Positions 1 to 39,484 are shown, counted from the stretch's first letter. The stretch is 64,000 nucleotides of DNA from a candidate division FCPU426 bacterium (GCA_963796105.1 CAWCKJ010000004.1:224001-288000), one strand, 5' to 3'. Notes: a model not told the origin generated them from the letters alone. Program-made: numbers and translations.

Positions 1-551
1 TCCGCCGCCGGGAGATCCAATCCAAGGCTCATGAGCTTCAGGATCCGGCAGGGGCTGGTTCCCAGGTTGTGGAGCCGGGCCCGCCGGATAAGGATGTCCC
101 ATTCGGGATAGAGGGTGTAATAGAGGGTGAGTTCCTGCCACGCCGGCTCATCGGCCAGGGTGATGCAAAGCGTTTGGGCTTCGCCCTCTTTCTCCACGGT
201 GGAGGAGGGCAGGCCCGAAAATTCCGGCTTGCCCGGCAGGATCTCGTGGCGGAGGTAGGTGAATGAGCTTACGCGCGAACCATCCGCCTGCTCCAGCAGG
301 AAAGCGGGGGTCCGCAGGTCGTTGTGGCCGAAATCGGCGAATTCCCGGTTATAGGACTCGAAAGAGGCGTTGGAGCCTGTGACCGAGGTTTGGCCTCGCC
401 AATCCTGGAATAGCTTCTCAGTTTCCCCTTCCTTCAGCGGCTTGTCCCAATAGAGGTGGTGAAGGCCTCCCTGGGCCGGAAAGCCCAGGAGGTAGGAAAA
501 GCCCTTGGCTTCCAGCAGGAAAAGCTTTTTATCGGGGTCGAACGAGATCAT
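1..551 (-). CDS. Alpha-galactosidase GH36, N-terminal part (runs off the window edge)
   Basis: Manual translation from ATG at 551: MISFDPDKKLFLLEAKGFSYLLG...LHHLYW...EFADFGHNDLRTPAFLLEQADGSR...GKPEFSGLPS...LTLYYTLYPEWDILIR, typical of the GH36 N-terminal domain. Not in the ORF track. Confidence 0.8.
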   Translation of the reverse strand, partial: MISFDPDKKLFLLEAKGFSYLLGFPAQGGLHHLYWDKPLKEGETEKLFQDWRGQTSVTGSNASFESYNREFADFGHNDLRTPAFLLEQADGSRVSSFTYLRHEILPGKPEFSGLPSSTVEKEGEAQTLCITLADEPAWQELTLYYTLYPEWDILIRRARLHNLGTSPCRILKLMSLGLDLPAA

Positions 552-737
552 GGAAACCTTAACCAAAAAAATAAATACTAATTTTTCGCCACGGATGCAT
601 GGGATTCATGGGATTAAAGCCTTTCTTCCTCAGACTATCTGAGTGCATACCCCTGAATCGACAAAAAAAAATCCAGGGAACATACGCCAAGCCCTGTGCA
701 CTGCTGAAAGCAGCCTGTGGTGAAAGTTTTTTTATCC

Positions 738-2033
738 TTACGGTTTTCCAAAGTACTTCTTGTTGATCGCCGCGTTCAACTGCGGCACGGCCTCCTCGGG
801 AGTCTTGTTCCCCATCCAGACAGGGTCCATGCCAGGACCCACCTGGCCGTTCCAGATCTCGCTCCAGCCCTTGAGGAAGGGGGCGTAATGGGAGTTTTGG
901 GGCATTTCCAGGAGGATCTTCTTGTTGGCGGCTCCCGGGCTTTTCAGGAAGGCGTCCGACTGGGCCACCTTGACCAAGGCCGGCTGAAGCATGCCGGTTT
1001 GGGTCAATTGGGTCACCAGTTCCGCTCCCGCCAGTTCCTTGATCACTTCCCAGGCCTTATCCTTGTTCTTGCTTCCCTTCCACATGGCGCAGCCGGTCCC
1101 GCCGGTTCCCCAGCCCCGGGTCCCGTGAGGGCCCATGGGAAATTCCGTCACGTCGAAATCCAGGTCCTTTTTCTGGAGGAACCCCACCGTGTGCCAGACG
1201 CCCGAGCACATCATGGCCACCTGGCCGTTCATGAACATGTGCTCCGCGCCGTTGCCGAAATTGAAGTTCTGGATCTCGCTGTAGGTGGGCGACACATGGT
1301 AGGTGTAGCTCATGTCCCATCGGAACCGGTAGGCCTCCAGAACCTTGGAGGAATCCAGAGCCAGGCGGGTGGGATGGTCCTCGCTGTCCATGAAGTAGCC
1401 CCCGTTGCTAAACATGAAAATGTCCGCGTTGGTGCCGTAGGGGTCGGCGAAAGCCCACTGGGTGATCCTTCCCTTGGCGTCTTTCTTCACGAATTTCTTG
1501 CAGTAGGTCAGGAAGGGTTCGGGCCATTTCCACTCGGGAGTGGGATAGGGCACCCCGGCCTCGTCAAAAAGTTTCTTGTTGTAATAGAGAAGTCCAGTGG
1601 GGGCAATGTCGGTGGGGATAGCGTAAAGTCCGCCATCGGGGCTGTAGCGCTTCAGGGCCGAGGAGTAATAATCATTCGGGTCCATCTTGTCGGCCTGGAA
1701 AAAGGGCATCAGGTTCTCGAAAGCGCCTCGGGTGTACATGTCCGGGAAATTGCTGGCCTCCACACTGATCACATCCGGGGCGTCATTGGCGCCCATCTCC
1801 ATGGTGATCTTGTCCATGTAGGAGTTGTAGGGGATGTTTTCCACCTTGACCTTGAGGCCCGGATGGCGGCTCTCGATTCCCTTGATGGTATCGTTCAGGA
1901 TCTTGATGAGGATGGGGTCGGTCGTGAACACCGCCACCCGGACGGCTGACTCCTTGGGTTTGAGCAGGCATCCCGCCTGGAATAACAGCGTCAAGGCCAG
2001 GCATGCCGCCGCGAAATGGATTATGCGCCTCAT
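738..2033 (-). CDS. Sugar ABC transporter substrate-binding lipoprotein
   Basis: Lipobox-like FQAGC. SBP_bac_1-type motifs (APDVI, LYYNKKLFDEAG, FMNGQVAM, FDVTEFP). Start moved to MRRII. Confidence 0.9.
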   Translation of the reverse strand: MRRIIHFAAACLALTLLFQAGCLLKPKESAVRVAVFTTDPILIKILNDTIKGIESRHPGLKVKVENIPYNSYMDKITMEMGANDAPDVISVEASNFPDMYTRGAFENLMPFFQADKMDPNDYYSSALKRYSPDGGLYAIPTDIAPTGLLYYNKKLFDEAGVPYPTPEWKWPEPFLTYCKKFVKKDAKGRITQWAFADPYGTNADIFMFSNGGYFMDSEDHPTRLALDSSKVLEAYRFRWDMSYTYHVSPTYSEIQNFNFGNGAEHMFMNGQVAMMCSGVWHTVGFLQKKDLDFDVTEFPMGPHGTRGWGTGGTGCAMWKGSKNKDKAWEVIKELAGAELVTQLTQTGMLQPALVKVAQSDAFLKSPGAANKKILLEMPQNSHYAPFLKGWSEIWNGQVGPGMDPVWMGNKTPEEAVPQLNAAINKKYFGKP

Positions 2034-11500: not shown

Positions 11501-12531
11501 GAGTAGACGATGTCAGGGGCCCCAGCGCCGTAATTATAACTCGTGTTGTTCGGTCCGGTGATCTGCTCGCTGTAGCTGTCCGACGAGCTGGTGGTGTCCC
11601 CCGATACGCAAGAACCATTGATATTAGAAGTAATGTCCGTGACGGTGGTGGACGTGGGTGTCGGGGCCGCCGCAAGTGTAATCGTTACGTCGTCGATCCA
11701 TATTGTCATTGGAGCCGTGGTAGAAACCTGAATACCCAATTGCTGGATATTAGTAGCCAATACAGGGTTCATTGTGTAGGTCACTTGAGTCCAATTGGAG
11801 GTAAGCGGGGAGGTCCAAGCGCCATTGTCCCAAGAATAGCCGCTGCTTGCGTTGAAAACCTGGAGAGATGTTGTTGAGCCAGTACCGGAAATCACCTTGT
11901 AATAAAAACTAATGGTGCTTCCGGCTGGAATCGTGGCGGGAGCATTAGAGAAATCCAAACCAATATTAGCCGACCCTGATGCCGGGAGAATGACCTCCAA
12001 GGAACCGGATGCGCTATGGAAATTCGTCGTATCTAACTGGACAGTGGTACCTGTTGGAGCTCCCCAAGCGGACCAACATTGGATGCTTGTATCGAATGTA
12101 TAAGACGCCAGCAAACTCGGAGCGTTACAAGCCGTGGAGGTCGAAGTCGGAGTATTGTTGAACGTGTTTGTGGGGGAAGGCGTCTGGGTGAGGGTACTGG
12201 TCAGGGTTTGCGTATTCGTCGGGGATTGGGTCCCGGTCGTCGTGTTCGTCGGGGTCGAAGTCACTGTGTTGGTGGATGTAGAACTTGGAGTCGGGGTTGA
12301 GGTCGAAGTATTCGTGGGACTGCTAGTCTGCGTCACTGTCGGCGTGGGTGTATTGCTCTGTGTGCCAGTACTAGTCGGGGTAGAGGACAAACCAAAAGTG
12401 GCGGTGGCGGTCGCGTAAATAAGGGGCAAAGAGGGGGTGACGCTCATGTTTCTAGTGCATCCAAAGAACAACGTTGCGATTGCGGCCCCAGTTAAGGCCA
12501 TCAAACCCATTCGTTTTTGCGGATATCCCAT
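8572..12531 (-). CDS. Large modular lipoprotein: CBM-like domain, two PPC-like modules, C-terminal NHL-repeat propeller
   Basis: Signal ending FFGC-TRN. Two ITDITSxIxGxC...DYRLV modules. NHL repeats (PVGVAVDNNGNVY, PLGLAVDNNGNLFAADY, PTGIGVDQAGNL). Start moved to MGYPQ. Confidence 0.75.
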   Translation of the reverse strand: MGYPQKRMGLMALTGAAIATLFFGCTRNMSVTPSLPLIYATATATFGLSSTPTSTGTQSNTPTPTVTQTSSPTNTSTSTPTPSSTSTNTVTSTPTNTTTGTQSPTNTQTLTSTLTQTPSPTNTFNNTPTSTSTACNAPSLLASYTFDTSIQCWSAWGAPTGTTVQLDTTNFHSASGSLEVILPASGSANIGLDFSNAPATIPAGSTISFYYKVISGTGSTTSLQVFNASSGYSWDNGAWTSPLTSNWTQVTYTMNPVLATNIQQLGIQVSTTAPMTIWIDDVTITLAAAPTPTSTTVTDITSNINGSCVSGDTTSSSDSYSEQITGPNNTSYNYGAGAPDIVYSFNLTQPTNLFINLCGATFDSVLYLRTNPSDPNTTLALDDDSDYCQKTNPPGSSSFVTGILQPGTYYVIVDGYGPGDYGPFTLCLNTFNPTCSLTPIAAPIALGSPSGTTDLGTVSVDAVGTGHVDWDFEYNNSWTFTPAAAGSYVISLDCFDDGNDSGKARVAYDLFDSGSNQVASSNGNTPLDQLTVDLTQQQYTVVVYAFSQGAPSGDYRLVIQAPAQATNTPTVTETPVPGITDITSSIDGTCVSGDTTGLGDTYSETIGADTYGQGAPDTAYLINLTQPTNLYISLCGANWGSVLYMRTNPADPSTTINFDQTSASCGDGSPSFVTGVLQPGIYYIIVDGTGAGNFGAYNLCLSTYSPTCSLTPVAAPIPLGSPSGSTDLGTVTVDAVGTGHVDVNFEETNTWTFTPGTAGSYVISLDCFDDTTNKVQAQYTLWDAGNNLIATSNGNDPLDQLAVDLTVQQYTVVVIDNWLDEPSGDYRLVITAPAATATPTVTSTSTPNKPPVLTVTPPLTFTPTVPAGACTQLVNSFETFTGTNPYTTENGSLAPDSDNPTLSQTTTGATDGINALDIDITVNNNSNQLVDWSGFTQSDFTNVTQILMDVTVDSNLIQTGAGAYNQLALIANPSSWTPITGNIDITAGSQTVTFTVSGAPAQVTDLLLIFNTDGSGTGNLYIDNVRFVYSVCPPTPTPTPIITNNSIWSFNASCPVGVAVDNNGNVYTSDPCYGLIHVYDFNGDYLYDITPPNPNPWGNSPTPLGLAVDNNGNLFAADYGNGNGEIMEFNTSTGALENMFWGSNNNSVTYIQAPYDVKLDGSGNLYVADYQGGYVAKIDPTTDTLTTLCSNTGGLVPMGVAVDSTGTNVYATDPVNDWVYQYDTATLTVQNSFNGSSWPTPLTAPTGIGVDQAGNLIICDFGNAVLDNTDTSGNFLQAVSPGGFQYPYYIAFDPSGSLYVTMNQWQIIGVIQNGVGNFQ

Positions 12532-26972: not shown

Positions 26973-28310
26973 TTATTTCTGATTGAAGAACTTCTTATTA
27001 ATTTCCTTCGTCAATCCCGGCAGGATTTCCGCGGGCGTTTGCTTCCCTTCCCAAGCCTTATCCATGGCTGTATTGACGGTCCCATAATAAATCTCCGACC
27101 AGTTCTTTAGGAAGGGCTCATAAACGCTATGGTCCGGCATATCCAACAGGATGGCCTTGCTGGGGGCCCCCGGGCTCTTCAGGAAGGCGTCGGAGGCGGC
27201 TAGTTTCTTGTCCGCCGGCAGGACCCAGCCCGTCTCGGCCAGCTGGGCCACGGCCGTTTCGGAGCACAGAATCTTGACCACTTCCCAGGCCAGGGCCTTG
27301 TCCTTGCAGGTGGCGGCGATGGCGAACCCCGCGCCGCCGGTCGCCCAGCGCCGGAGGCCCGTGGGGCCGTCCGGGAAAGGCACGACGTCGAAATCGAGGC
27401 CCTTGGTCTTGAGGAAATTGGGGGTCTCCCAAAGGCCGGAATCCATCATGGCAATCCGGCCGTTCATGAACATGGCCGCCACCGAATTGCCGACCCCGAA
27501 AGCCTGGATGGAGGCCGGGGCCGGGACCACCCGGTATTTGTGCATCAGGTCCCAGTAGAACTGGAAGCCGCGGATGGCTTCGGGCGTGTCCAGCGCCAGC
27601 CGGGTGGGGTGCTCGGTGTCGTCCACGAAATTGCCGCCGCTGCTGAACAGGAAATTATCGCAATTGGTGATCCAGGAGTCGCAAAAGGCCCAGCGCGTGA
27701 CTTTGCCGGAGGGGTCCTTTTTCATCAGCTTCTGGCAGATGGAAAGGAAGGGCTCGGGCCAGGACCAGTCGGCCTTGGGATAGGGCAGTCCCGCCTCCCG
27801 GAAGGCCTTGCGGTTGTAATAGACCAGCCCCATGGGCGAGGTGTCCTGGGGCAGGACGTATAGGCGGCCCCCGGGGCTGAAGCGTTTGACGATCCCCGGA
27901 TAATCGTTCTTCAGGTCCATTCCGTCCTTTTGGGGGAAATCCGTCAGGTCCGCCAGCACACCGCGCATTTGGAGGTCCACGTAATTATTCACCGCCAGCA
28001 TCAGGATATCCGGTGCGGTGCCGGACGCGATCTCCGAGGTGATTTTTTCCTCATAGCTGGTGTAGGGGATGTATTCCAGGCGCACCTGGTAACCGGGGTG
28101 TTGTTTCTCGAAATCCTTGACCGTATCCGCTAGGAGGGGGAAATGCGGCTCCCCCAGCCAGGTGGTGACCCGGATCACCTTGCCCCCCAGCTTGAGGCAA
28201 CCTTGGATGGGGAAAAAGAGGGCAGCCGCCAAGAGCATCCATATCCAACCCTGAATTCTCACACGCGATATTAAAAACTTTTTCAAGGAGCTAACCTCTC
28301 TAATTGGCAT
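26973..28310 (-). CDS. Sugar ABC transporter substrate-binding lipoprotein (paralog of 738..2033)
   Basis: IQGC lipobox. Shares WxWPEPFL, RLALD, SDAFLKSPGA, PFLKxWSEI with the first SBP. True start may be the TTG at 28286 (AGAGAGG upstream). Confidence 0.9.
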   Translation of the reverse strand: MPIREVSSLKKFLISRVRIQGWIWMLLAAALFFPIQGCLKLGGKVIRVTTWLGEPHFPLLADTVKDFEKQHPGYQVRLEYIPYTSYEEKITSEIASGTAPDILMLAVNNYVDLQMRGVLADLTDFPQKDGMDLKNDYPGIVKRFSPGGRLYVLPQDTSPMGLVYYNRKAFREAGLPYPKADWSWPEPFLSICQKLMKKDPSGKVTRWAFCDSWITNCDNFLFSSGGNFVDDTEHPTRLALDTPEAIRGFQFYWDLMHKYRVVPAPASIQAFGVGNSVAAMFMNGRIAMMDSGLWETPNFLKTKGLDFDVVPFPDGPTGLRRWATGGAGFAIAATCKDKALAWEVVKILCSETAVAQLAETGWVLPADKKLAASDAFLKSPGAPSKAILLDMPDHSVYEPFLKNWSEIYYGTVNTAMDKAWEGKQTPAEILPGLTKEINKKFFNQK

Positions 28311-28316
28311 TGTACC

Positions 28317-28345
28317 GGCTCCCCGGATTCAACGATTTACGAACT
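28317..28345 (+). other. Left attachment junction (core + element arm)
   Basis: GGCTCCCCG + GATTCAACGATTTACGAACT. The arm is an imperfect reverse complement of GGTTCGCAAAAGCGTTTGAA at 36471-36490. Confidence 0.8.
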
Positions 28346-28436
28346 TTTCGCCTAGAATTCCCTAAATAAAATTAAACCAGGGCCGGATTCAACGATTTGC
28401 GAACCCTTGAACTCTTAATATTCAATGTTTAAAAAT

Positions 28437-28904
28437 CTAAATACCATCAAACATTTTACCGATTAAAAGATTAGCAAAAAAATACGCACCAATCAGGAAC
28501 AAAACAACACCCGCCTGCTTCCTTGCTATCTCATAATTACCTCTAAGCAAAAATAATAACATTCCGCAATAAGAAACAATTAATGCACTAAATAAATTGC
28601 GATATCTATTTAGTATTTCCGTGAGAGAAAAATGATCTGTATTAGCATAATCAAATAATTGTTCGCCACAGGTAAATGGATAAAGCCACACAACGAGGAG
28701 AATAAATGAAAGTAAAAGAACAACTTGTCCTGAAATAAAACGGAAATATCTTTTATTCTCGCAAAGCATGTAAATTCCCAAAAAAGGAAAACCATAAGGA
28801 ACAACGATAAAAGAAACCAGAAGAATTAATCCACTAATCACATTCCATAAAAATTTGAACACGTCAATTGTTTCATGAATAAATTTCATCGGGTTGAAAT
28901 CCAA
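28437..28904 (-). CDS. Hypothetical membrane protein (cargo)
   Basis: AT-rich ORF with about 4 hydrophobic segments. Confidence 0.6.
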   Translation of the reverse strand: MDFNPMKFIHETIDVFKFLWNVISGLILLVSFIVVPYGFPFLGIYMLCENKRYFRFISGQVVLLLSFILLVVWLYPFTCGEQLFDYANTDHFSLTEILNRYRNLFSALIVSYCGMLLFLLRGNYEIARKQAGVVLFLIGAYFFANLLIGKMFDGI

Positions 28905-28922
28905 TGCAGTTTTAATAAATTC

Positions 28923-29279
28923 CTATTGAATTAATCCAAAGGATCGATAAACAAAAAAACACTGATAACTGATCTTAAATATAAGAAACGCAAAAGCAAT
29001 AAATGTCACTATAAGAACAATCTTCCATTTTCTATTTGTTATAGATCGAAGGCCGAATGGTAATAAAATTGCACCAAGAGCCGGTACCCAATATGGATTC
29101 GTTTTATAGGCAATCCTAACAATAATGGGAACCCGGTTAAGTCTATCTTCACCTACACTGCCAAGCCCTTCAAATATCATTGGAAAAATAAACACAAAAT
29201 AAAAACATAAAAGAGCTGGAATAAAAAATATACTGATTACCATAATTATTTGAAAAAATTTTGATTTTTTTGAAATCAT
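28923..29279 (-). CDS. Hypothetical membrane protein (cargo)
   Basis: 118 aa with about 3 hydrophobic segments. Confidence 0.55.
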   Translation of the reverse strand: MISKKSKFFQIIMVISIFFIPALLCFYFVFIFPMIFEGLGSVGEDRLNRVPIIVRIAYKTNPYWVPALGAILLPFGLRSITNRKWKIVLIVTFIAFAFLIFKISYQCFFVYRSFGLIQ

Positions 29280-29331
29280 CTAAATTTTGTTTCTTCGCAA
29301 TGTCTCCCCATTCCATACGTTTTGCGAATTT

Positions 29332-29916
29332 TTAAATTCGTTGATATTTATCTATTTTATAAGCCATTATTGTTGTAACGATGTTACCGATTACCAATAT
29401 CAGCACAAATGCTAAAAACGAATGAATAATTTCTGCTTGTAAATAAACCATTATTACTAAAACTAAATAGGCCACTTCTAGGGTAACCATTTGTATTTCT
29501 GAGTATATATTTTTATCTTTTTCTAAAATATATATCCAAGGGATGAGCGCAACACAAGCAGACCAAAGAAGTCTTGGTATAAAAGAATGATCGGTTGCTG
29601 TTTTTGTGAAAATAATCAATATTGCAAAACACCATAATGTCGTTATAAGTATGCGATACAATGAACTAAGTGCTCCCCAAAAATAACCTTTTTTCTTATT
29701 ACCGCTTACAAAACTTTCAGATGCTAATGCAAGTAAAAATAATCCAGGCATCATTGGAATTGGAAGTAAAAATGCTGGTGCAGTAATTTCTAGAAAAAAT
29801 CCTATAGCTATTGCTCCCCATTCGCCCAAGATGGCCAACCATATGAGCGAAACAATACCACTTAAAATAGAAAAAATGGCCAATACAATACCTAAACCCG
29901 TAAGAAGTATTTTCAT
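29332..29916 (-). CDS. Hypothetical polytopic membrane protein (cargo)
   Basis: RBS AGGAG. About 6 hydrophobic segments. Confidence 0.7.
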   Translation of the reverse strand: MKILLTGLGIVLAIFSILSGIVSLIWLAILGEWGAIAIGFFLEITAPAFLLPIPMMPGLFLLALASESFVSGNKKKGYFWGALSSLYRILITTLWCFAILIIFTKTATDHSFIPRLLWSACVALIPWIYILEKDKNIYSEIQMVTLEVAYLVLVIMVYLQAEIIHSFLAFVLILVIGNIVTTIMAYKIDKYQRI

Positions 29917-29964
29917 AGCATCTCCTAAATCAAATCAGGGATAGACATAATTCGCTCCCGTGCC

Positions 29965-30417
29965 TTATTTGTATTTTTTTGGTTTATGACCGATTAAATG
30001 GACTTCTGATAAGTATGAATCGATATCATTTTCCTTACCGTAAATATCTTCGCGGATTGTCTTAACCACAGTACGCAATAATTCGTCATGTTTAATTGAC
30101 CATTCTTTTGATTCCCTTGGAATTTCAGTATTACTTTGACGAATGAAATTATGAAATTTCATCAACTCTTGAACGACAGAGGGAGCGGCAATGACGATTA
30201 AACTATTAAAACTTTCCGATAATCTTTTTTGTGCATCATCGTCATTATTATCAATCGCAACATCGCTCATAGATTTTATATACAATCGATAATATTCTTG
30301 TTTTATCTTTCTTTCTTCAGATTCTCGTTGTTGTTTTTTTGTTAGGTAATAGGTAATGAATGATCCCAAAATACCTACCAATGCAGTAATTGTGATTGTA
30401 ATAAATTGGGCATCCAT
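29965..30417 (-). CDS. Hypothetical protein with N-terminal TM helix (cargo)
   Basis: RBS AAGGA. Single TM segment followed by a charged helical domain. Confidence 0.7.
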   Translation of the reverse strand: MDAQFITITITALVGILGSFITYYLTKKQQRESEERKIKQEYYRLYIKSMSDVAIDNNDDDAQKRLSESFNSLIVIAAPSVVQELMKFHNFIRQSNTEIPRESKEWSIKHDELLRTVVKTIREDIYGKENDIDSYLSEVHLIGHKPKKYK

Positions 30418-30442
30418 ATGCTTTTCCTTTCCGGAAATAGGT

Positions 30443-31078
30443 CTAAGGTGAATTAAAAATATTAAATATATTTTTAATACAAACTACAAAAAGAGAATTA
30501 AAACCGATTAAAAAATACGATAAATACAAAAACCGCATGCAATCAACATTTTGATCTAGTTTAAGAAACAATGAAAATATCTTTCCATCTTTCGAACCCT
30601 TTAATTCTCTCGTGAAAAATTTCCATATTTTATTCGGAAATAATCTTTTTAACGGTGCATAAAAATCTAAAAATGTCATAAGACTTAATGCTTCTATAAT
30701 ACTTAGTGCTAGAAAAAACCACCCTTCATAAAACAAAGGTTTCCATTCAATAGGGTGTTTCCCTTGAAGGGAAGATACTTCCGCAAATGACATGGATAGT
30801 AGAAAAAGGGTTAATGTAATTAACCATTTAAAATAATCTGTCCAACTTTTACGAAAAGATTCGATTACCGATTTTGTTGGAATTTTAATTTTCAGTGGTT
30901 TAAATTTTGATTTGTGTTTATTTTTGTCCTTTTTAATCAAAATAAACCAAATCAGATCAACAATAACTATTTGCACAATAAGCCATTTAAAAATTTCTAA
31001 TGGTATTTTTAAAAAAGATAAAAGGAATATCCAAATCAAAAGGGAAACAAGGTATTTAACAAATTCTTTGAAATTCAT
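30443..31078 (-). CDS. Hypothetical membrane protein (cargo)
   Basis: 211 aa with several hydrophobic segments. Confidence 0.6.
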   Translation of the reverse strand: MNFKEFVKYLVSLLIWIFLLSFLKIPLEIFKWLIVQIVIVDLIWFILIKKDKNKHKSKFKPLKIKIPTKSVIESFRKSWTDYFKWLITLTLFLLSMSFAEVSSLQGKHPIEWKPLFYEGWFFLALSIIEALSLMTFLDFYAPLKRLFPNKIWKFFTRELKGSKDGKIFSLFLKLDQNVDCMRFLYLSYFLIGFNSLFVVCIKNIFNIFNSP

Positions 31079-31117
31079 TTAACTTCCCAGTTATAACCCG
31101 AATTAAAGTAGAAGAAA

Positions 31118-31882
31118 CTACACGGTTATTAATTTCGATAATTCTTTGTTTAAGAACAACATAAAATTTTTTAAGATTGGGACAGAACGGTAAAAATATT
31201 TTAAGTTTGTTTGCAAACGAACTCTTTTTTTATATCCCATAGTTTTCAAATACTTCTCGTCTTGAATACCGTGGTTATGAACTACTAAATTTCTGCGAAG
31301 TGATATCTCTTTAATTTTTTCCCAATCTTTAAATCCTGATTTGATATCTATTTTAAATTTGTTTTCAAGAAGCAATCCCAATCCAATAATGCCGCTATCT
31401 AAAGTATTTTTAATTTCTTTATCAACCATAGCAGAGATTATTTTTTCAATACTTCCAAGGTTTATTATTTCTTTATATAAAATTGGCTTGTCGTTTTTCA
31501 GGTAGGATGTTTTCAAAAATAAAACTTGTCGAAGTTGTAATTCAACAAAATTTTCAAATAAAATAACCAAATAAGTTAAAGCCATATTTGCCAAAAAATT
31601 CTTTTTCGTAAATTCACTAAGCGATTCCGCTAAAAATATTTTTACATTATCTGATTTTGGATTAAACTTTTTATTCTTTTCTACAACTCCGAAAATAGCT
31701 GCATTTTTTCTTAGCTCGGCCTTCTCCTTGAAGGAAAGATTGTCGAAAGTAACCGTATGTTTGCTTGAAATTAAAATTTCTGTATCTTTTACAAGAGATT
31801 CAAGTAAATCAATATTTGCCGAACTGTAATTTAAAAATGCTCGTAAGGCCTTAATACTATCTTTTTTTTTAACTATTTTCAT
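31118..31882 (-). CDS. Putative HEPN-domain protein
   Basis: Helical protein with LFENFV and a C-terminal RNLVVH (Rx4H) followed by NHG. Confidence 0.6.
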   Translation of the reverse strand: MKIVKKKDSIKALRAFLNYSSANIDLLESLVKDTEILISSKHTVTFDNLSFKEKAELRKNAAIFGVVEKNKKFNPKSDNVKIFLAESLSEFTKKNFLANMALTYLVILFENFVELQLRQVLFLKTSYLKNDKPILYKEIINLGSIEKIISAMVDKEIKNTLDSGIIGLGLLLENKFKIDIKSGFKDWEKIKEISLRRNLVVHNHGIQDEKYLKTMGYKKRVRLQTNLKYFYRSVPILKNFMLFLNKELSKLITV

Positions 31883-31997
31883 TTTGTCCTCAAAATATAT
31901 TGATTCAAGGGACTTATATAATTAACTTCCTTTTTTCTTTTTCCCTTATTTCTTGGGTTATACCGTTCACGACTCAATATTTTATTTGAATAGGAAG

Positions 31998-32573
31998 TCA
32001 AGTACCTAAATTCTTTTGACGTTCTATTAACTCTTTTTGATATTCAACGAAAGTTTGAAAGTCTTTAGGATCAACAGTCGGGGAAATTGGCTTATCTCGT
32101 TGTAGCTTTGTCTTTATAGTATTTATATTTTTTTTGATTACTTCCTTTAATTGATCGGGTGGGTCTCGAAATCGTCTTTTTGCTAATTCCCAATTTCTTT
32201 CAAATTCCTTTTTAAGGTCATCAGCATCTGACGTTCCGGGATAAGCTTTATCAAAATTTTTAACTACTTGTCCTTGCCATATATCCAACGTATCCCACAG
32301 CCAATATCCATAATCTTCTAGTTTGAAATTTAATAAAATTTTCGCATCATTTTCTAAACACACTTTAAATTGTTGGAGGGTAGAAAATTCTTTTTTGGTT
32401 TTGAAGAAAAAATAATGGCATACCATAATTAAACCGATAGCTATTCCAATAATTCCTATAGAATCAGATTGCGGTAGGTGTGTCAATCTTCCTACCCCTC
32501 CATAAATAAGCGCAAACGCAGAAACTAAATTCCAAGGATTTCGCATAGGAGGTATTATAAATAACAAACTCAT
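31998..32573 (-). CDS. Hypothetical protein, two N-terminal TM segments
   Basis: 191 aa ORF with a hydrophobic N-terminus and a charged C-terminus. Confidence 0.6.
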   Translation of the reverse strand: MSLLFIIPPMRNPWNLVSAFALIYGGVGRLTHLPQSDSIGIIGIAIGLIMVCHYFFFKTKKEFSTLQQFKVCLENDAKILLNFKLEDYGYWLWDTLDIWQGQVVKNFDKAYPGTSDADDLKKEFERNWELAKRRFRDPPDQLKEVIKKNINTIKTKLQRDKPISPTVDPKDFQTFVEYQKELIERQKNLGT

Positions 32574-32599
32574 TTGTGGAATTAACTATATAAGTTTCT

Positions 32600-32788
32600 T
32601 TATTCTAGGGTTTGGTCGGTTTTATCCTCAAAAATTATTTGTGCTTGAGTTCTTGAAGATAAAGAAACAGCTTTCAATCTATCTTTCAAAACTTCTCTTG
32701 AAATAATTTTGGCCAATATTCGAATGCCGGATTTTATACTCTCTTTTGATTCTTCATCAGATTCCATTTTAAACCTTAAGGTATTCAA
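32600..32788 (-). CDS. Small hypothetical protein
   Basis: 62 aa ORF overlapping the stop of the upstream gene. Confidence 0.4.
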   Translation of the reverse strand: MNTLRFKMESDEESKESIKSGIRILAKIISREVLKDRLKAVSLSSRTQAQIIFEDKTDQTLE

Positions 32789-33351
32789 TACAGGATAATT
32801 TGACTGCTCTCGAAACTTTTAGGCAATTTGCATGGGGCGTTGTGCATATAAATTTCGGTGCTATCTGCTGATTGAATAGAACTTAAATCTGTCATTGTTT
32901 GACATGTAATTGTAATTACCGCTGAGTTTGCAGAGCAGGGTAACGTATCCCCGCAATTAATCGTAAGGTTTGAAGAGTTTATAGAGCCTGAACAACTGGA
33001 AGGCCCTGCACAAGTTGTGGTAGGGGCGGAACATGCTGTGCCGGTTATGATGGAAACCGAAGAACTATTAAAACTTTGCGGTAAATGAGATGGAGCGGCG
33101 CAAGCAAAAATATCCGTACTATTAGCGGATTTAATTGAACTTAAATCCATTGGAGTTGAACAAGATAACGTGATTTCGGAGCTATTGGCCGATGAAGGAA
33201 GAGTAGCCCCACAAGGCAAGATAAACGAACTACTGTTTGCACTGGTTCCCCCCGTGGAAGGGGATGTAGCCGGTTTTGAAGTGCAAGACCAAACCAGCCA
33301 TGAGAAAACAGTAAGGCCTAATAAACCCAAAAACATTGTATTTTTTTTCAT
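32785..33351 (-). CDS. Cys/Ser-rich lipoprotein with internal duplication
   Basis: RBS GAGG and lipobox VWSC. Two copies of CGxTLPxSANSxxITxxCxTxxDLSSIxSAxSTxI...APxxLPxSFxSS. Confidence 0.7.
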   Translation of the reverse strand: MKKNTMFLGLLGLTVFSWLVWSCTSKPATSPSTGGTSANSSSFILPCGATLPSSANSSEITLSCSTPMDLSSIKSANSTDIFACAAPSHLPQSFNSSSVSIITGTACSAPTTTCAGPSSCSGSINSSNLTINCGDTLPCSANSAVITITCQTMTDLSSIQSADSTEIYMHNAPCKLPKSFESSQIILY

Positions 33352-33473
33352 AAACACACCTCTTTTAAAATTCAATCCGGACCAAAAACTTGTTTTGCCG
33401 TGGATTCAACTTATTTCACGACTTAATATATAGTTTATGTACTGAACTAGGAGTTTCAACTGTAATTTGTCCC

Positions 33474-33719
33474 ATGAAGGACAAATTCATCACCATTCAA
33501 TTGGGGAAAAATATTCGGGAATTAAGGCTTAAAAAGGGATTAACCCAAGAGCAATTGGCCGAATTAACCCAAATTCATTCGGTATATATGAGCAATATCG
33601 AGAACGGCTTACGAAATATTACTGTGATTAAAGCCTTTAAAATCGCTCAAGCGTTGGATTGCGACGTTTCGAAATTGTTCAAGGGGATTCCCCGTACACC
33701 TAAAAGCGCTTCAAAATAA
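33474..33719 (+). CDS. XRE-family HTH regulator
   Basis: LGKNIRELRLKKGLTQEQLAE...YMSNIENGLRN...IAQAL. Confidence 0.9.
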   Translation: MKDKFITIQLGKNIRELRLKKGLTQEQLAELTQIHSVYMSNIENGLRNITVIKAFKIAQALDCDVSKLFKGIPRTPKSASK

Positions 33720-33726
33720 ATTCCAC

Positions 33727-34160
33727 CAAACCCATAAACCCATTCTCAGAATCCATTCTTAGAATGCCATTCTTAGAATCCCAAACCCCTTGAGCAGGGT
33801 TTAAAAGCCATTATTTATGTGTTTATTAACCCATAAACCCATTCTTAAGAATCCATTCTTAAGAATCATTCTTAGAATGCCATTCTTAGAATCCACAAAC
33901 CCATTAGGCAGGGTATAAAAGCCATTATTTATGGGTTTTATTAACCCATAAACCCATTCTTAAGAATCCATTCTTAGAATCATTCTTAGAATCCATTCTC
34001 AGAATCAAAACCCATAACCCACAAACCCATTACCCATACCCATAAACCCTTTAGGTATGCCTAAAACCATGTTTTATGGGATATAACCCACCCCTAAACC
34101 CATACACACAAACCCATTACCCATAAACCCATAACCCATTTCCAAACCCATCGCCTTATG
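33727..34160. repeat. Nested repeat array: three ~110-120 bp units holding 11 ATTCT(T/C)(A)AGAAT palindromes plus AAACCCAT repeats
   Basis: Read directly. ATTCTTAAGAAT is a perfect palindrome. The spacer GCAGGGTWTAAAAGCCATTATTTATG occurs twice. Confidence 0.9.
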
Positions 34161-34280
34161 GGTTTTGTTTTCAATCTAAGAAACACTCTCAAAGACCAAT
34201 CCGGGGATTTTTTAATGGAAAAATCGAGGGCGGATTCAACGATTTGCGAACCTATTTTCAGGGGGTGTTTTTAGGTTTTC

Positions 34281-34457
34281 CTATTTCACTTTTTGCGGGG
34301 GAAGGGTAGCTTTGACGGTAGCCGGGTTTCGACGCATTGCCCCGGTCACCAGCAATTCTATCAACTGCTTGGAGAACTCATGGCCTTCTTCAGGGGCAAT
34401 CGGAACAAAGTTAATTTCCACGTAAAAAGGTCTTTTTTTATTATGCCCATTAGTCAT
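34281..34457 (-). CDS. Small protein divergent from the regulator-recombinase operon (possible directionality factor)
   Basis: 58 aa ORF MTNGH...VEINFVPI...LIELL. Function inferred from position only. Confidence 0.45.
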   Translation of the reverse strand: MTNGHNKKRPFYVEINFVPIAPEEGHEFSKQLIELLVTGAMRRNPATVKATLPPQKVK

Positions 34458-34537
34458 ATTCCGGAGTATAATCCGATTATGCCTTATGGTCAAGTATTCT
34501 GAAAAATAATTTCATCGTTTAAAAAAGGTAGGTGCTT

Positions 34538-35005
34538 ATGGCAATGACAGGTAAAAGGCTGGAGCCTCAAGTCTCTGAGGAGTTCGTCAAGCTATTTGAG
34601 GAACACCTGGAAAAGAACAAACTAACCTTGATGGAAGTGGCGGATAAGGTGGAAATGTCCCAAAGCTACCTTTCCAGGATTCTAAGCCGGGAAAGGGGCC
34701 TTCCATCGGATGAGAAAGTCCTGCAAATGGCAAAAGCCCTCAAGATCAATCCCCCTGAATCCCTCTTGATTGTGGCCGGAAGGATACCGGCCACTAAGGG
34801 GGAAACGGATTCAGCCAAGATTGACAAATGCATCGATAAAATCAACCAACTAGCCCAAGAATCCAAGGAAATCAAAGAGGCCGCCGAATCCAACGCCTTT
34901 ATAGCCAAAGTCCTGTTAGGCATTGCGGCACTTGCGGGGGTGATTCTTATAGCCATAGCGGCTATTACCCTAAAACGGAAAAAAGAGATAAAGAATGACG
35001 CCTGA
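34538..35005 (+). CDS. XRE-family HTH regulator with C-terminal TM helix
   Basis: LTLMEVADKVEMSQSYLSRILSRERGLPS HTH. C-terminal VLLGIAALAGVILIAIAAITL-KRKK. Overlaps the recombinase start. Confidence 0.8.
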   Translation: MAMTGKRLEPQVSEEFVKLFEEHLEKNKLTLMEVADKVEMSQSYLSRILSRERGLPSDEKVLQMAKALKINPPESLLIVAGRIPATKGETDSAKIDKCIDKINQLAQESKEIKEAAESNAFIAKVLLGIAALAGVILIAIAAITLKRKKEIKNDA

Positions 35006-36818
35006 AAAGGTTAAATGCGGCCTATACGTCAGGGTATCAAGCCAGAACCAATTAAGCCCGGAATATAACTCTCTGGCAAGCCAAAGGGAGAAATTAGAGG
35101 CCTACTGCAAGAGCCAGGAAGGCTTTGAAATCTACCGGGTTTATGAGGATGGGGCTTTTTCGGCTGACAGCATGGAAAGGCCGCAATTGCAAGCCATGTT
35201 GACCGATATTCGTTTTGGGAAAATCAACTGCGTTTTAGTTTACAAGATTGACCGGCTCACCCGTTCGGTTAAGGACTTTAATACCCTTCTGGAAATATTC
35301 GAAAAGTACAAGGTCAAATTCGTTTCAATCACCCAAAGCTTAGACACTACCAGCCCGTCAGGGCGCTTGATGCGAAATATCATTGTGGACTTCAGCCAAT
35401 ACGAAAGGGAGATGACTTCCGACCGCACCAAGGACAAGATGCACCAAAGGGCGGAAAAAGGAATGTGGAACGGGGGAGTTGTGCCTTTTGGGTACAAAAA
35501 CGAAAACAAGAAGCTTGTCATTCATCCCAACGAATCCCCCATAGTTCAATTCATGTTCCGTCAATTCTCACAAGAGCCTTCCCTTGCCAAGCTAAGGGAA
35601 AAACTAAGGCTTAGGGGATATATGAACCGTGCCGGGAAGGAATGGGACAAAACCGCAATCATGCATATTCTTAAAAATCCGGTTTATTGCGGGAAAATCC
35701 GTATTGGTGAACAAATCTATAAAGGGCTTCACGAATCAATAGTTGAGGAAGCCCTATTCTTGCGGATCGAGAGATTAACACCCGACCGCACACACCCCAA
35801 AACCAAAATTGAAAGGCCGTTTCTGTTAAAGGGGTTGATTAGATGTTCCTATTGCGGTTCCTACATGACGCCCCATTACACCTTGAAGCACAGGAAAGAC
35901 GGCTCAACCCATGCGGTTTGTTATTACCGATGCACCAAGACAACCCATTTCAATAATCAATCCTGCAAGATCAGGCACATCAACGCCGAATTTGCGGAAA
36001 ATTGGGTCATAAGTTCCTTAACCCAAGTTACCTACAATGACGTTTATTTAGAAACCACTATCGAGGAAATAAACAAGAACCTACTTGGAAAAACGAATGA
36101 TTTGGAAAAGGAAGTGGATAACTTCAAGAAGAGTTTAGAAGAAGTAGAAAGCAAGATAGACCGCTATGTGAAGGCAATAGGGGAAGGAACCACTACCGCT
36201 AAACTCATAGAAAAAGAAATCAAAGTCCTAACGGATGATAAAAGAAAACTGGAAATCCAGTATGAAGCGGCCCAAGTGGACTTTAACAGCCAAGCAATGG
36301 CCGCTTTCGACGTTCAATTGATAAAAGAGAGTTTGAAAAGTTTCCGTGACAGCTTTGGGGCTCTTACGACCGAGGAAAAGGCGCAAACTCTACAGAAGTT
36401 TCTCAAGACCATCTTGGTTTATCCTGAAAAGATGTCCCTTGATGTCTATGAATTACCCACCTTTTCCGTCGGTTCGCAAAAGCGTTTGAAATGGCTCCCC
36501 GTGCTGGACTCGAACCGGGCACAATCGTCTTTGATGCCAATATTTTACCGTTCTGGAATAAAAGGCGGGAATTCTTTGGAAAACCGCTTTTCACCACAGG
36601 GACTCAGAGACTCAGCCAAAATCCCAGTTTATTGGCATAAATTCGGCTTATGCCAGCAGGAGACCCGGCCTTTCCGACAGGCCTTTCGACAGTCAAGCTG
36701 TCCATTCCGACAGAAACCTGGCCTTTCCGACAGGGCGCCCGATAGGCAGACCGCCCATTCCGACAGGAGCCCGGCCTTTCCGACAGGGCGTCCTGGGACC
36801 TTGGAACTCTGGAACTAG
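34995..36818 (+). CDS. Large serine recombinase (integrase); last ~105 aa are read-through beyond the att core
   Basis: YVRVSS catalytic motif, RPQLQ, KIDRLTRS, VPFGY, LKNPVYCG, LKGLIRCSYCG and YYRC Zn ribbon, coiled coil. The frame crosses the core at WLP (36492-36500). Confidence 0.95.
   Translation: MTPEKVKCGLYVRVSSQNQLSPEYNSLASQREKLEAYCKSQEGFEIYRVYEDGAFSADSMERPQLQAMLTDIRFGKINCVLVYKIDRLTRSVKDFNTLLEIFEKYKVKFVSITQSLDTTSPSGRLMRNIIVDFSQYEREMTSDRTKDKMHQRAEKGMWNGGVVPFGYKNENKKLVIHPNESPIVQFMFRQFSQEPSLAKLREKLRLRGYMNRAGKEWDKTAIMHILKNPVYCGKIRIGEQIYKGLHESIVEEALFLRIERLTPDRTHPKTKIERPFLLKGLIRCSYCGSYMTPHYTLKHRKDGSTHAVCYYRCTKTTHFNNQSCKIRHINAEFAENWVISSLTQVTYNDVYLETTIEEINKNLLGKTNDLEKEVDNFKKSLEEVESKIDRYVKAIGEGTTTAKLIEKEIKVLTDDKRKLEIQYEAAQVDFNSQAMAAFDVQLIKESLKSFRDSFGALTTEEKAQTLQKFLKTILVYPEKMSLDVYELPTFSVGSQKRLKWLPVLDSNRAQSSLMPIFYRSGIKGGNSLENRFSPQGLRDSAKIPVYWHKFGLCQQETRPFRQAFRQSSCPFRQKPGLSDRAPDRQTAHSDRSPAFPTGRPGTLELWN
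36471..36518 (+). other. Right attachment junction; host side resembles a tRNA 3' end on the minus strand
   Basis: GGTTCGCAAAAGCGTTTGAAAT-GGCTCCCCG-TGCTGGACTCGAACC. Minus strand reads GGTTCGAGTCCAGCACGGGGAGCCA (T-loop + acceptor 3' strand + CCA). Confidence 0.75.
36660..36790. repeat. Short repeats of (GGCCT)TTCCGACAG
   Basis: About 6 copies of TT(C)CGACAG at irregular spacing. Confidence 0.8.
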
Positions 36819-37134
36819 CCTGGAACCACTGAAACTCGGGATTTCTGGAACTTTGGAACTTCTGGAACTGGCCTGGAACCACCAAATTCGGGATTCCTGG
36901 AACTCTGGAACTCTGGAACTTCTGGAACTGGCCTGGAACCACCAAATTCGGGATTCCTGGAACTCTGGAACTGTCATTGGCCACGAGCTTTAACCCCCTA
37001 GCTGGCCAAGCACTTTGACCCCACCTCTGGCCAGTCACTTTGACCCCCTGTCTGGCCACCGACTTTGACCCCCTTGCCAAGGGCCTCTCTAACCGTCATT
37101 CCTTTCTCTTTTCACTTCATGTGAGGAGAACGGC

Positions 37135-38691
37135 ATGACCCGACAAGGGAGGCAGAGCGACATGACGACTATTCGTGAGATTTTGAGGACTTACCAGGCC
37201 TTGGGCGGGTTCAAACCCACTGCCCGGGCCCTGGGATGCAATAAGCACACGGTCAAGCAATACGTGCGTTGGGCGAAAGAACATGGCTTTCTCCAAGGGG
37301 AACTTCCCCTGGAAAAGGATTTGGCGAAGGCTTGGGAAGACGGCGAAAAATCCACGCCCGTTCCCGCTCATGCCTTGGAGGCCCTCAAGGGAATCATCCA
37401 AGAATGGTTGAAGGAAGATTTCACCTTGATTCGCATCCAGGAGATGCTTCAAGAGCGGCACGGGTGGAAGGGGAGTTACTCGACCCTGAAGAGGTATACG
37501 GAGCCTTTTCGCAATGAGAAACCCGCCTACGTGAGGCTGGAGGTTGCGCCCGGCGAGGAGGCCCAAGTGGATTTCGGGCTTTTGGGCCGCTTGTGGGACG
37601 AGACGCGTGGCAAGCAAGCCAAGGCCTGGGTTTTCGTGATGACCCTTTCCCATTCCCGGCATATGTACGCCGAGATTGTATTCGCACAGGACGTGAGAAC
37701 CTGGATCGCCTGCCACCGCCGGGCTTTCGAGTTCTTCAATTCAGTCCCTAAAAAAATCGTAATCGATAACCTGAAAAGCGCCATCGTCAAGGCGGCCCTC
37801 TATGATCCCTTGGCCAACCGTACCTACGTGGAATGCGCCAACCATTACGGCTTCATCATCTCCCCTTGCCGCGTCGCCACTCCACGCCACAAGGGTAAAG
37901 TTGAACGCGGCGTGCCCTATGTCCGTAATTCCTTCTTCAAGGGTCGTTCCTTCCAGGGCCGCACCGATGCCAACCATCAACTCCGCGATTGGGTGATGAA
38001 CAAGGCAGGTTTACGGGATCATGGCACCACCCGGCTTCAACCCTTGGCCGTCTTCCAGAGCGTGGAACAGAAGGCCCTTTTGCCCCTGCCTACCGCGGCT
38101 TACCATCCAACTTTCTTCAAAGAAGCCACTCTGCACCCCGATTGCCACGTAGTCGTGGAAGGTTCCTATTACTCGGCTCCCTACCGTCTTCGGGGCCAAA
38201 AACTACTGGCCCAATTAACCGACACCACCGTTGATATATTTCTCAAACACGAATGCGTGGCTTCCCACGCCAAGGCCACACGCAAGGGAACCTGGCGCAC
38301 CAACCCGGGCCACTATCCCCCTGAAAAAGCGGTCTTCTTGGAACGAACCCCACAATGGTGCCTCAAACAGGCCCAGGCCATTGGACCTAATACCCATCAA
38401 TTAATCCAACTCCTGCTGGAACACTCCCACCCCCTGGACCACCTGCGCAAAGCCCAGGGCATTCTGCGCTTGAGGGAAAAGTACCTGCCTTCCCGTCTGG
38501 AGGCAGCCTGTCTAAGGGCCCTCCATTTCGGAAACTACACGTACCAATCCATCAAAAACATCCTTCAAAAGAACCTCGATCAAAACCCGTTGGACCCGCC
38601 GTCGGATCCTTCACTCAAACCCCAGTCGTCTTTCGATTTCGCCCGGCCCGCGGAGGATTTCCTCCGTGCCTTGGCTCTGGATAAAAATTGA
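37135..38691 (+). CDS. istA: IS21 transposase
   Basis: PGEEAQVDFG, LSHSR, IDNLKSAI, KGKVERGV DDE motifs, YSAP. Confidence 0.95.
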   Translation: MTRQGRQSDMTTIREILRTYQALGGFKPTARALGCNKHTVKQYVRWAKEHGFLQGELPLEKDLAKAWEDGEKSTPVPAHALEALKGIIQEWLKEDFTLIRIQEMLQERHGWKGSYSTLKRYTEPFRNEKPAYVRLEVAPGEEAQVDFGLLGRLWDETRGKQAKAWVFVMTLSHSRHMYAEIVFAQDVRTWIACHRRAFEFFNSVPKKIVIDNLKSAIVKAALYDPLANRTYVECANHYGFIISPCRVATPRHKGKVERGVPYVRNSFFKGRSFQGRTDANHQLRDWVMNKAGLRDHGTTRLQPLAVFQSVEQKALLPLPTAAYHPTFFKEATLHPDCHVVVEGSYYSAPYRLRGQKLLAQLTDTTVDIFLKHECVASHAKATRKGTWRTNPGHYPPEKAVFLERTPQWCLKQAQAIGPNTHQLIQLLLEHSHPLDHLRKAQGILRLREKYLPSRLEAACLRALHFGNYTYQSIKNILQKNLDQNPLDPPSDPSLKPQSSFDFARPAEDFLRALALDKN

Positions 38692-38704
38692 GGAGGAAAC
38701 ATAT

Positions 38705-39484
38705 ATGGAAAATAAACATCAGTTGGAGCCGCACCTGAGAAGGTTAAAACTCGCAGGAATGTTGGAGACGCTGGAAATCCGAAACCAGCAGGCCATTGAA
38801 TCCCAGATCGGTTATATGGATTTCCTGGGCCAGTTGCTGTTGGATGAGCTGGAGCGCCGCCAAGTGGGCCAACTCCAAAGAAGGCTGAAAAAGGCGGGCT
38901 TCTCAACCCATATGACTCTAACGGGGTTCGATTTCGCCTTCAACCCGGCCATCAACCGGCAACAAATCCTGGATTTGGGTACTTGTTCTTTCGTGGAGCG
39001 AAAAGAGAACCTATTTTTCATCGGTCCCTCAGGTGTGGGCAAAACCCATTTGGCCTGCGCTTTGGCCCATGAAGTCTGCCGCAAGGGTTATGAGGTACTC
39101 TTTATCAAGACCTCGCATGCGGCCCAACGATTAGCGGCCTCGCGCGGGGACGGTACCTGGGAAAACCGATTCGCATCCTTCCTGAAACCCGACCTCTTGA
39201 TCCTGGACGACTGGGGTCTCAAGCCCTTCGACACCAAGGTCGCCGAGGATTTTTACGACATCATCTGTGAGCGTTATGAAAAGGGCTCCTTGATTTTTAC
39301 CACCAACCGCAGTCTGCGGGAGTGGCCGGAGCTTTTCGGCGACGCCCTCCTAGCCTCGGCTGCCATGGACCGCCTGGTCCACCATGCCACTGCCGTCGTC
39401 ATTCAGGGCCCTTCCTTTCGGACCCGTTCCATGCGCGAAGAAATGAAAAAAGAACACAGCAGGGAAAAAGAGGCAAAACTATGA
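38705..39484 (+). CDS. istB: IS21 helper ATPase
   Basis: GPSGVGKTHLA Walker A, LLILDDWG Walker B, TTN, AMDRLVHHA, GPSFR. RBS GAGGAGG. Confidence 0.95.
   Translation: MENKHQLEPHLRRLKLAGMLETLEIRNQQAIESQIGYMDFLGQLLLDELERRQVGQLQRRLKKAGFSTHMTLTGFDFAFNPAINRQQILDLGTCSFVERKENLFFIGPSGVGKTHLACALAHEVCRKGYEVLFIKTSHAAQRLAASRGDGTWENRFASFLKPDLLILDDWGLKPFDTKVAEDFYDIICERYEKGSLIFTTNRSLREWPELFGDALLASAAMDRLVHHATAVVIQGPSFRTRSMREEMKKEHSREKEAKL

Follow-up and report, generated by a model that had tools for sequence, protein, structure and literature searches.

Core-less half-site copies of an attachment site within a serine recombinase island of a candidate division FCPU426 bacterium, and a possible history of serial integration

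What is the origin of two identical direct repeats that enclose the cargo of a genomic island, and do they take part in the movement of that cargo? The case considered here is a 64,000-nucleotide stretch of the genome of a candidate division FCPU426 bacterium (GCA_963796105.1, CAWCKJ010000004.1:224001-288000; hereafter, the window), in which the 22-mer CGGATTCAACGATTTGCGAACC occurs twice without any difference, at 28384-28405 and 34231-34252, inside an 8.2-kb island that also encodes a large serine recombinase (LSR). The initial annotation proposed that these repeats are secondary attachment (att) sites through which cargo was gained in steps, in an integron-like array run by a serine recombinase. 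Our preferred interpretation, to which we assign a probability of about 0.5, is that they are extra copies of one half (P') of the attachment site of the island's own LSR, that the island is likely a composite formed by serial integration beside one tRNA-Asn-like site, and that the repeats, instead of serving as crossover sites, are half-sites left in place where modules were once joined or close by.

We refer to the copy at the left junction of the island as A and to the two perfect 22-mers as B and C. Copy A (28324-28345) differs from CGGATTCAACGATTTGCGAACC at 2 positions, and at up to 3 mismatches the window contained 3 matches, compared to 0 in 100 shuffles. The bases directly before B are ccAGGGCC, and those before C are cgAGGGC. 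In all these respects (coordinates, lead-ins, and near-identity to the left junction arm) the initial annotation was accurate, as it was for the gene order: B and C bracket eight minus-strand open reading frames (ORFs), a lipoprotein-like ORF, an XRE gene, and a repeat array, while a small ORF, a second XRE-type gene whose product has a hydrophobic stretch, and the LSR gene lie to the right of C. A profile of core plus arm, built from 18 copies, was run on the 4.98-Mb genome, and only four matches were significant (A, 34.7 bits; a copy on contig C10, 29.6; B, 28.4; C, 26.9), the best match below them reaching 12.9 bits (E value, 0.44). With four significant copies in the genome, the motif is no common repeat. 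B and C are identical to the consensus arm of the family. The degenerate core and arm suggested between two cargo genes, at 29302-29330, did not stand up to the same profile (E value of 2 within the island), and for three arm queries its alignment score was equaled in 4, 19, and 2 shuffles out of 200, which is not beyond chance.

These figures refute the idea that the repeats have nothing to do with the recombinase and either recur throughout the genome or match by chance. Three of the four significant copies lie in this one island, the arm is the inverted partner of a sequence at the 3' end of the LSR gene (see below), and 12 of the 31 genomes scanned from the bacterial family contain the arm with 3 mismatches or fewer, against 0 for a reversed-pattern control. 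What can be said for chance comes from metagenome contigs, where an exact 19-mer scan with the arm gave 36 loci, all in unrelated contexts and none with an LSR (tblastn, 1e-10), a core, or an island-like appearance; a short motif can recur in very large collections, and we rejected these loci as relatives, taking them as chance matches in unrelated genes. Other explanations of the arm sequence were also discarded. The mismatches between A and B/C are synonymous in the GFNDLRT frame, yet ca. 20 copies show no synonymous bias of the kind expected of coding sequence. A hairpin or terminator role was unsupported by folding, the single-stranded DNA folds of B and C on both strands being no better than those of shuffles (z values of 0.67, 0.05, -0.65, and -0.63). 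The bases leading into B and C look like the complement of the core, a likeness for which there is no producing mechanism and which we took as coincidence.

The island (28317-36501) has a GC content of 0.25 to 0.47, against ca. 58% in the surrounding DNA, and its predicted mover is the LSR, with the domains Resolvase (PF00239; E value, 4.9e-37), Recombinase (PF07508; 3.3e-14), and Zn_ribbon_recom (PF13408; 1.2e-10). A homologue search with the single protein found no relative, and one with an alignment recovered 80 loci, 31 to 66% identical; viral contigs gave only LSRs of up to 44% identity and were left unused. The ends of the island read P-core at the right and core-P' at the left, that is, imperfect inverted arms around a shared GGCTCCCCG (Table 1), and the P arm is part of the LSR frame; therefore, attP overlaps the recombinase's own 3' coding end. 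The attP rebuilt from the two ends is a near-palindrome, and its layout is identical in two related islands, one in G001, a genome of the same genus, and one in G021, a relative with an LSR 65% identical. The P arm is conserved in both as well as in ca. 20 distant loci. Given the location of attP inside the 3' coding end, integration would exchange the C-terminal tail of the LSR. In the chromosome the integrated frame reads through a tRNA-like fragment and beyond, to a length of 607 amino acids (aa) versus 507 to 512 aa in most relatives, while in the predicted circular form of the island it would end in KWLPGFNDLRTFRLEFPK and a stop codon. The tail segment in question also closes the neighboring LSR gene of the sister locus (G001, ORF 9..1139), and in tandem arrays the tail is supplied by the arm of the neighbor.

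The integration target is predicted to be the 3' end of tRNA-Asn. The window contains no tRNA gene (tRNA and Rfam scans were empty), and the true tRNA-Asn of the genome (C4 c1259578-1259652) is unoccupied. At the right junction of the G021 island, the same P arm and core adjoin an intact tRNA-Asn(GTT), and ca. 20 distant LSR relatives (ca. 50% identity, several phyla) carry the P arm, TGGCTCCCCGG, and tRNA-like sequence. In the tRNA, CGAACC lies 8 nt past CCCCGG, compared to 13 nt for the corresponding motif in arm A, making the tRNA-side half-site 5 bp shorter. According to PMC3783163, the attB and attP half-sites of serine integrases differ by a 5-bp shift of the zinc-ribbon motif; the 8- versus 13-nt spacing equals this shift and marks the arm as a P' half-site. 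The proposal that the repeats are copies of an att arm of the serine recombinase is thus borne out. Left flanks differ between loci, so that only the tRNA-side half of attB is conserved. Fragments similar to the tRNA-Asn 3' end are dispersed in the genome (C3:106597-106693, C4:675134-675195, C2:259670-259735, and the window at 36497-36586), several of them preceded by AAATGGCT and some followed by a common flank of ca. 70 nt that closes with a terminator-like hairpin; in appearance they resemble landing pads or the scars of former attR sites. The segment 36577-36635 of the window has at least 8 more copies scattered over the genome, at 83 to 97% identity.

Table 1. Features of the island and its junctions (window coordinates)
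Feature	Coordinates	Strand	Remarks
Left 9-bp junction repeat (crossover core), GGCTCCCCG	28317..28325	+	Same 9-mer at right end; same core in the two junctions of sister islands
Arm A, P' half-site at left junction, GGATTCAACGATTTACGAACT	28325..28345	+	34.7 bits with core; CGAACT 13 nt past CCCCGG
Tail segment, LSR frame to KWLPGFNDLRTFRLEFPK in predicted circle, TAA at 28367-28369	28346..28369	+	Frame kept in 4 copies
Arm B, lone core-less P' half-site, ccAGGGCC before	28384..28405	+	28.4 bits; starts 60 bp after arm A
Arm C, lone core-less P' half-site, cgAGGGC before	34231..34252	+	26.9 bits; 29 nt past stop of small minus-strand ORF
Degenerate core and arm of the initial annotation, weak resemblance only	29302..29330	+	Profile E value of 2 within island
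P arm, GGTTCGCAAAAGCGTTTGAAAT, inverted partner of A, B, and C	36471..36492	+	Within LSR coding end (GSQKRLKW)
Right copy of junction repeat, GGCTCCCCG	36493..36501	+	Read directly
B' half-site, like tRNA-Asn 3' end, CCCCGTGCTGGACTCGAACC	36497..36516	+	2 differences from the genome's tRNA-Asn; CGAACC 8 nt past CCCCGN
Large serine recombinase, ORF crossing right junction into flank	34995..36818	+	Resolvase/Recombinase/Zn_ribbon_recom
Cargo, eight co-oriented ORFs, ca. 30% GC	28437..32788	-	No family match; unalignable to sister island cargo
Lipoprotein-like ORF, backbone, highly diverged	32785..33375	-	28 to 42% aa identity to sister island
XRE-family helix-turn-helix (HTH) gene	33390..33719	+	HTH_3 E value, 2.3e-15; 42% aa identity to sister island gene
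Repeat array, ca. 114-bp units, ATTCTTAAGAAT-type palindromes and ACCCATAAACCCAT runs	33720..34190		94% sister block starts here
Small ORF, 58 to 70 aa	34281..34493	-	Conserved in G001 and G021 (51% over 41 aa to G021)
XRE-type HTH protein with hydrophobic C-terminal stretch	34532..35005	+	HTH_3 E value, 2.3e-8; 96% to G001, 62% to G021

A cargo bracketed in full by identical direct repeats invites the interpretation of the initial annotation, namely, that B and C are active secondary att sites from which the 5.8-kb block, or smaller cassettes, would be captured or shed as circles. We consider this unlikely. The crossover core GGCTCCCC is missing from both copies and is replaced by AGGGCC in B and by GAGGGC in C, and neither a P arm nor a core is found to their left, in the window or in G001, where the same was read. 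Judging from the symmetry of the arms, the central dinucleotide of the crossover is presumably TC at 28320-28321. At the same offset B has GG and C has AG (AA and AG in G001), that is, no pair among A, B, and C has a common inferred central dinucleotide; without it and without a core, none of these pairs should be religatable by the usual chemistry of serine recombinases. B and C are therefore unlikely to be working crossover sites, GG and AG matching neither TC nor each other. Besides, the bases left of B are unconserved between loci, neither of two module genes tested was found at a second place in 31 genomes, and there is no hairpin potential. The fact that left flanks differ between loci does mean that the attB side tolerates an arbitrary outer half-site, and one-sided sites might work on that account.

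The only close comparison is with the sister island of G001, situated at another locus and with an LSR 95% identical but broken, where all three arms persist, B again 60 bp after A and C perfect. The two islands align over 28317-28405 (85%) and 33725-36583 (94%), with nothing alignable to the sister island between 28405 and 33725; the G001 cargo is different and includes an HNH-bearing 783-aa protein. The left break in homology falls exactly at the end of B, as active sites would have it, whereas the right break is the left edge of the array (33725), ca. 500 bp before C. Between these two islands, then, the arm bounds the variable cargo on the left and does not do so on the right. In G021, the outer core and arm are kept, and a diverged C is found at the equivalent place, its position between the array and the small ORF being kept although the surrounding DNA no longer aligns; no B was detected there within 5 mismatches. 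The G021 cargo comprises a type II restriction enzyme, a split Dcm, Vsr, and PLD-like and NERD-like proteins. Another island of the A type (L152) has no B. The site in G001 orthologous to the left junction of the window (flank 93.6% identical) is occupied by a different, LSR-less island of 1.7 kb with nested P, P', and core scars. At this orthologous locus (L153; G001:C27, reverse strand, ca. 900 to 1,040 nt after the arm), a 135-nt stretch contains two P'-like arms, two P-like arms, three core-like motifs, and one tRNA-like fragment.

Relatives of the family also show elements stacked at one target. In both G001 and G021, the left neighbor of the island is a second LSR gene, ca. 29% identical to the first, with its frame running ...KWLPG into arm A, the two LSR genes belonging to whole elements in tandem. 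None of the 13 arm loci that were fetched contained an LSR, and nearly all of their arm copies have CTCCCC in front and stand at the start of a low-GC patch of 0.4 to 2 kb; in 5 of 16 stand-alone copies, the 2 kb downstream include a tRNA-Asn-like fragment with no more than 3 of 20 positions mismatched. LSR-less one-gene modules have core and arm on one side and core and tRNA fragment on the other, and recombinase-less units between attL- and attR-type sites were seen at L147, L154, L155, and L157, the last on contig C10 of the same genome as the window. L147 consists of two one-gene modules directly in tandem, with a core and arm for each. An opposite-strand ORF has its 3' end within 140 nt after the arm in 15 of 22 cases, the ORFs being mutually unrelated. 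L157 (C10:117170-117600) is an LSR-less mini-island of ca. 0.4 kb in which GTCCCC and the arm are followed by a 71-aa zinc-ribbon-like ORF and a degenerate tRNA-Asn-like fragment (5 mismatches). There are also "empty" sites (L150 10040-10085, L158 9926-9985, and L159, on the reverse strand, at 10004), where core, P' arm, 8 nt (e.g., GATATGAA), core, and tRNA-like fragment succeed one another with nothing between.

The modules that end in arm and core, some of them stacked, can be counted in favor of active att sites. They also lend themselves to a more elaborate scheme, a serine counterpart of the integron, in which LSR-less single-gene cassettes ending in a P' half-site and core would be docked in trans by an LSR at tRNA-Asn-like pads and at the left ends of LSR islands, with B and C as docking points for cargo exchange; this, too, we hold to be improbable. 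The notion of an integron-like array run by a serine recombinase survives in part as a description of history, not as one of current activity.

Serial integration would proceed as follows. With only the tRNA-side half of attB conserved, later arrivals could still use the attR of a resident element and would pile up on the tRNA side. Recombinases and cores would subsequently be lost by deletion, fusing modules, and the fused unit would move as one piece via arm A and the P arm, while B and C may still bind the recombinase. This scenario accounts for the same-strand orientation of the arms, their variable spacing, the mixed composition of the island (GC of ca. 0.30 for the cargo versus ca. 0.45 for the LSR module), and the intermediates in relatives. 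The stepwise gain of cargo through secondary att sites, as first proposed, is supported insofar as the cargo is distinct in composition and fully different in the sister island and as core-and-arm modules of relatives are stacked; it is weakened by the core-less state of B and C. Tandem elements at one target were found in relatives; complete att sites (core with both halves) were not found at internal seams in the window.

Several results weigh against serial integration. Simple accretion predicts a P or core remnant at the seams, and such remnants are present at the internal junctions of L147, L153, and an island on contig C6 (see below), but none is recognizable to the left of B or C. The array sits between the variable cargo and C and goes with the LSR module in the 94% block from 33725, which means that C is no module boundary in the one close comparison. 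The three units formed by A, 39 bp, and B vary at 2 of 21 arm columns, against ca. 11 of the 15 bases before B, and the A-B spacing is 60 bp in all three loci with both arms, a conservation and fixed spacing that fit a function better than a dead scar. Neither of the two module genes tested was present at a second site among the 31 genomes, both being singletons. Of five distant islands with both junctions in reach, four have no extra arm, and across 22 distant loci the P arm occurred in inverted form no more often than same-strand control matches did. Lastly, the central dinucleotide was deduced from symmetry and could be one base off.

The missing remnants, the array that travels with the LSR module outside C, and the conserved B together keep another role in play, in which B and C are working protein-docking half-sites for an LSR subunit, under selection and with no strand exchange. 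They could assemble or restrain the recombination complex, block transcription leaving the cargo operon and the small-ORF unit, or titrate the enzyme. We regard such a role as possible, although on the doubtful side. It agrees with the match of both B and C to the family consensus, with an arm B that varies no more than arm A (at 2 of 21 columns in each), lies at an unvarying distance from it, and follows 15 bases nearly saturated with changes, with the place of C kept in G021 despite an LSR only 65% identical and unalignable surroundings, and with the frequent proximity of arm copies to the 3' end of an opposite-strand ORF (15 of 22). A second LSR island in the same genome (C6:129455-139560; ca. 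10 kb), adjoining tRNA-Gln(CTG), likewise keeps an inner core-less copy of its own arm. Its far end has three tandem copies of a different P' arm, of which the outer one is degenerate and followed by a P-like arm and core, the middle one is the junction copy, and the third is core-less and 147 bp inside. On the other hand, according to PMC3783163, none of the serine integrases investigated to date requires accessory DNA sites, most distant islands (four of five) do without extra arms, and B is absent from L152 and, within 5 mismatches, from G021; the conservation of the arm could equally reflect gene conversion between copies or a recent origin. The tandem arms of the C6 island also speak for serial integration, and so does a relative in a Nitrospira metagenome-assembled genome (L034), where the left end is duplicated over 65 bp with one ORF between the copies. 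An automated junction search of 6 more LSR/tRNA loci found no extra arms, and the direct repeats that it did find were too short to trust and were left uncounted.

As for the genes carried, neither the eight cargo ORFs nor the lipoprotein-like and small ORFs could be assigned to a family in Pfam, NCBIfam, or PADLOC, two PADLOC rows (E values of 0.004 and 0.0098) being taken as noise. Iteron-like arrays related to 33720-34190 occur in the same genome (C6:132515-132821) and in L017 (6498-6990) and L019 (ca. 11560-11880). Related arrays adjoin LSR modules in G001, in G021, and on contig C6, accompanying two LSR types only 27% identical, with the C6 array in the opposite orientation; possible roles are an origin, a partition site, or an operator bank. 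A solute-binding lipoprotein gene, which likely starts with GTG at 28262, has the left junction ca. 55 bp upstream of that start (28262-28325 region); the ATG listed for it at 28310 is unlikely to be the true one, and the cargo operon is directed into this gene. Beyond the island, the stretch 36660-39484 holds an IS21-family pair (istA, 37135-38691; istB, 38666-39484), with three different short tandem repeat arrays before istA at 36660-37080 (CCTTTCCGACAGG, CTGGAACT, and TGGCCA..CTTTGACCCC).

Serine integrases are treated as simple two-site enzymes and hence used as genome-engineering tools. A lineage with conserved core-less half-sites would offer a handle on the tolerance of one-sided sites and on the accretion of cargo by islands, those of this family including, in the sister islands, restriction-modification and other defense-like genes. 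If the half-sites are inert, the island is one more case of accretion and decay, in a poorly studied bacterial family. A non-exhaustive literature search found no description of this tRNA-Asn LSR family.

Among known systems, cis-mobilizable elements (CIME) and integrative and conjugative elements (ICE) of streptococci form composites with three or more att sites when a newcomer enters the att site of a decayed resident. They differ in their tyrosine recombinase and in having identical core repeats at every seam. The term "accretion" is used for this type of process in PMC3146451. Integron cassettes resemble the modules described here in being diverse, mostly single, unassigned ORFs with a recombination-site element just past the 3' end (15 of 22 in our case), some of them stacked. 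Unlike integrons, the island has no IntI tyrosine integrase, its only recombinase being of the serine type, and shows no attC-type hairpin (z from 0.67 to -0.65) and no attI/Pc platform, and the arrays do not exceed two or three units. The A118/LI, Bxb1, and phiC31 integrases, as presented in PMC3783163, share with the LSR the domain set, the inverted attP arms, and an attB shorter by 5 bp per half-site; those enzymes use one attP and no auxiliary sites, in contrast to the extra conserved P' half-sites inside this element.

The closest known cases are the composite islands of the staphylococcal cassette chromosome (SCC) and the ssrA islands of Dehalococcoides. In SCC, each internal site is a full integration-site repeat on which Ccr can act. 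SCC composites and pseudo-SCC elements (the subject of 10.1101/336396 and PMC3900703) are alike in that Ccr serine recombinases stack elements at one site, with recombinase-less elements between the same site repeats and mosaic cargo, and unlike our island in their target, rlmH and not a tRNA, B and C being incomplete here. The ssrA islands (McMurdie et al. 2011, PMC3146451) are tandem islands with repeats of the target 3' end between them, some of the islands lacking an integration module and being proposed as cis-mobilizable by accretion; like the island studied here, they have a CcrB-like LSR at one end and target the 3' end of a small structured RNA gene. They differ in that their internal repeats are full 20-bp target repeats and not core-less island-side half-sites, and in that the target is ssrA and not tRNA-Asn with dispersed tRNA-Asn-like fragments; in addition, our island has no second small recombinase (DsiA/CcrA-like) beside the LSR, and its attP overlaps the recombinase's own 3' coding end. 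What is distinctive here is the combination of a tRNA-Asn target with dispersed tRNA-like pads, an attP inside the recombinase gene, and conserved core-less half-sites.

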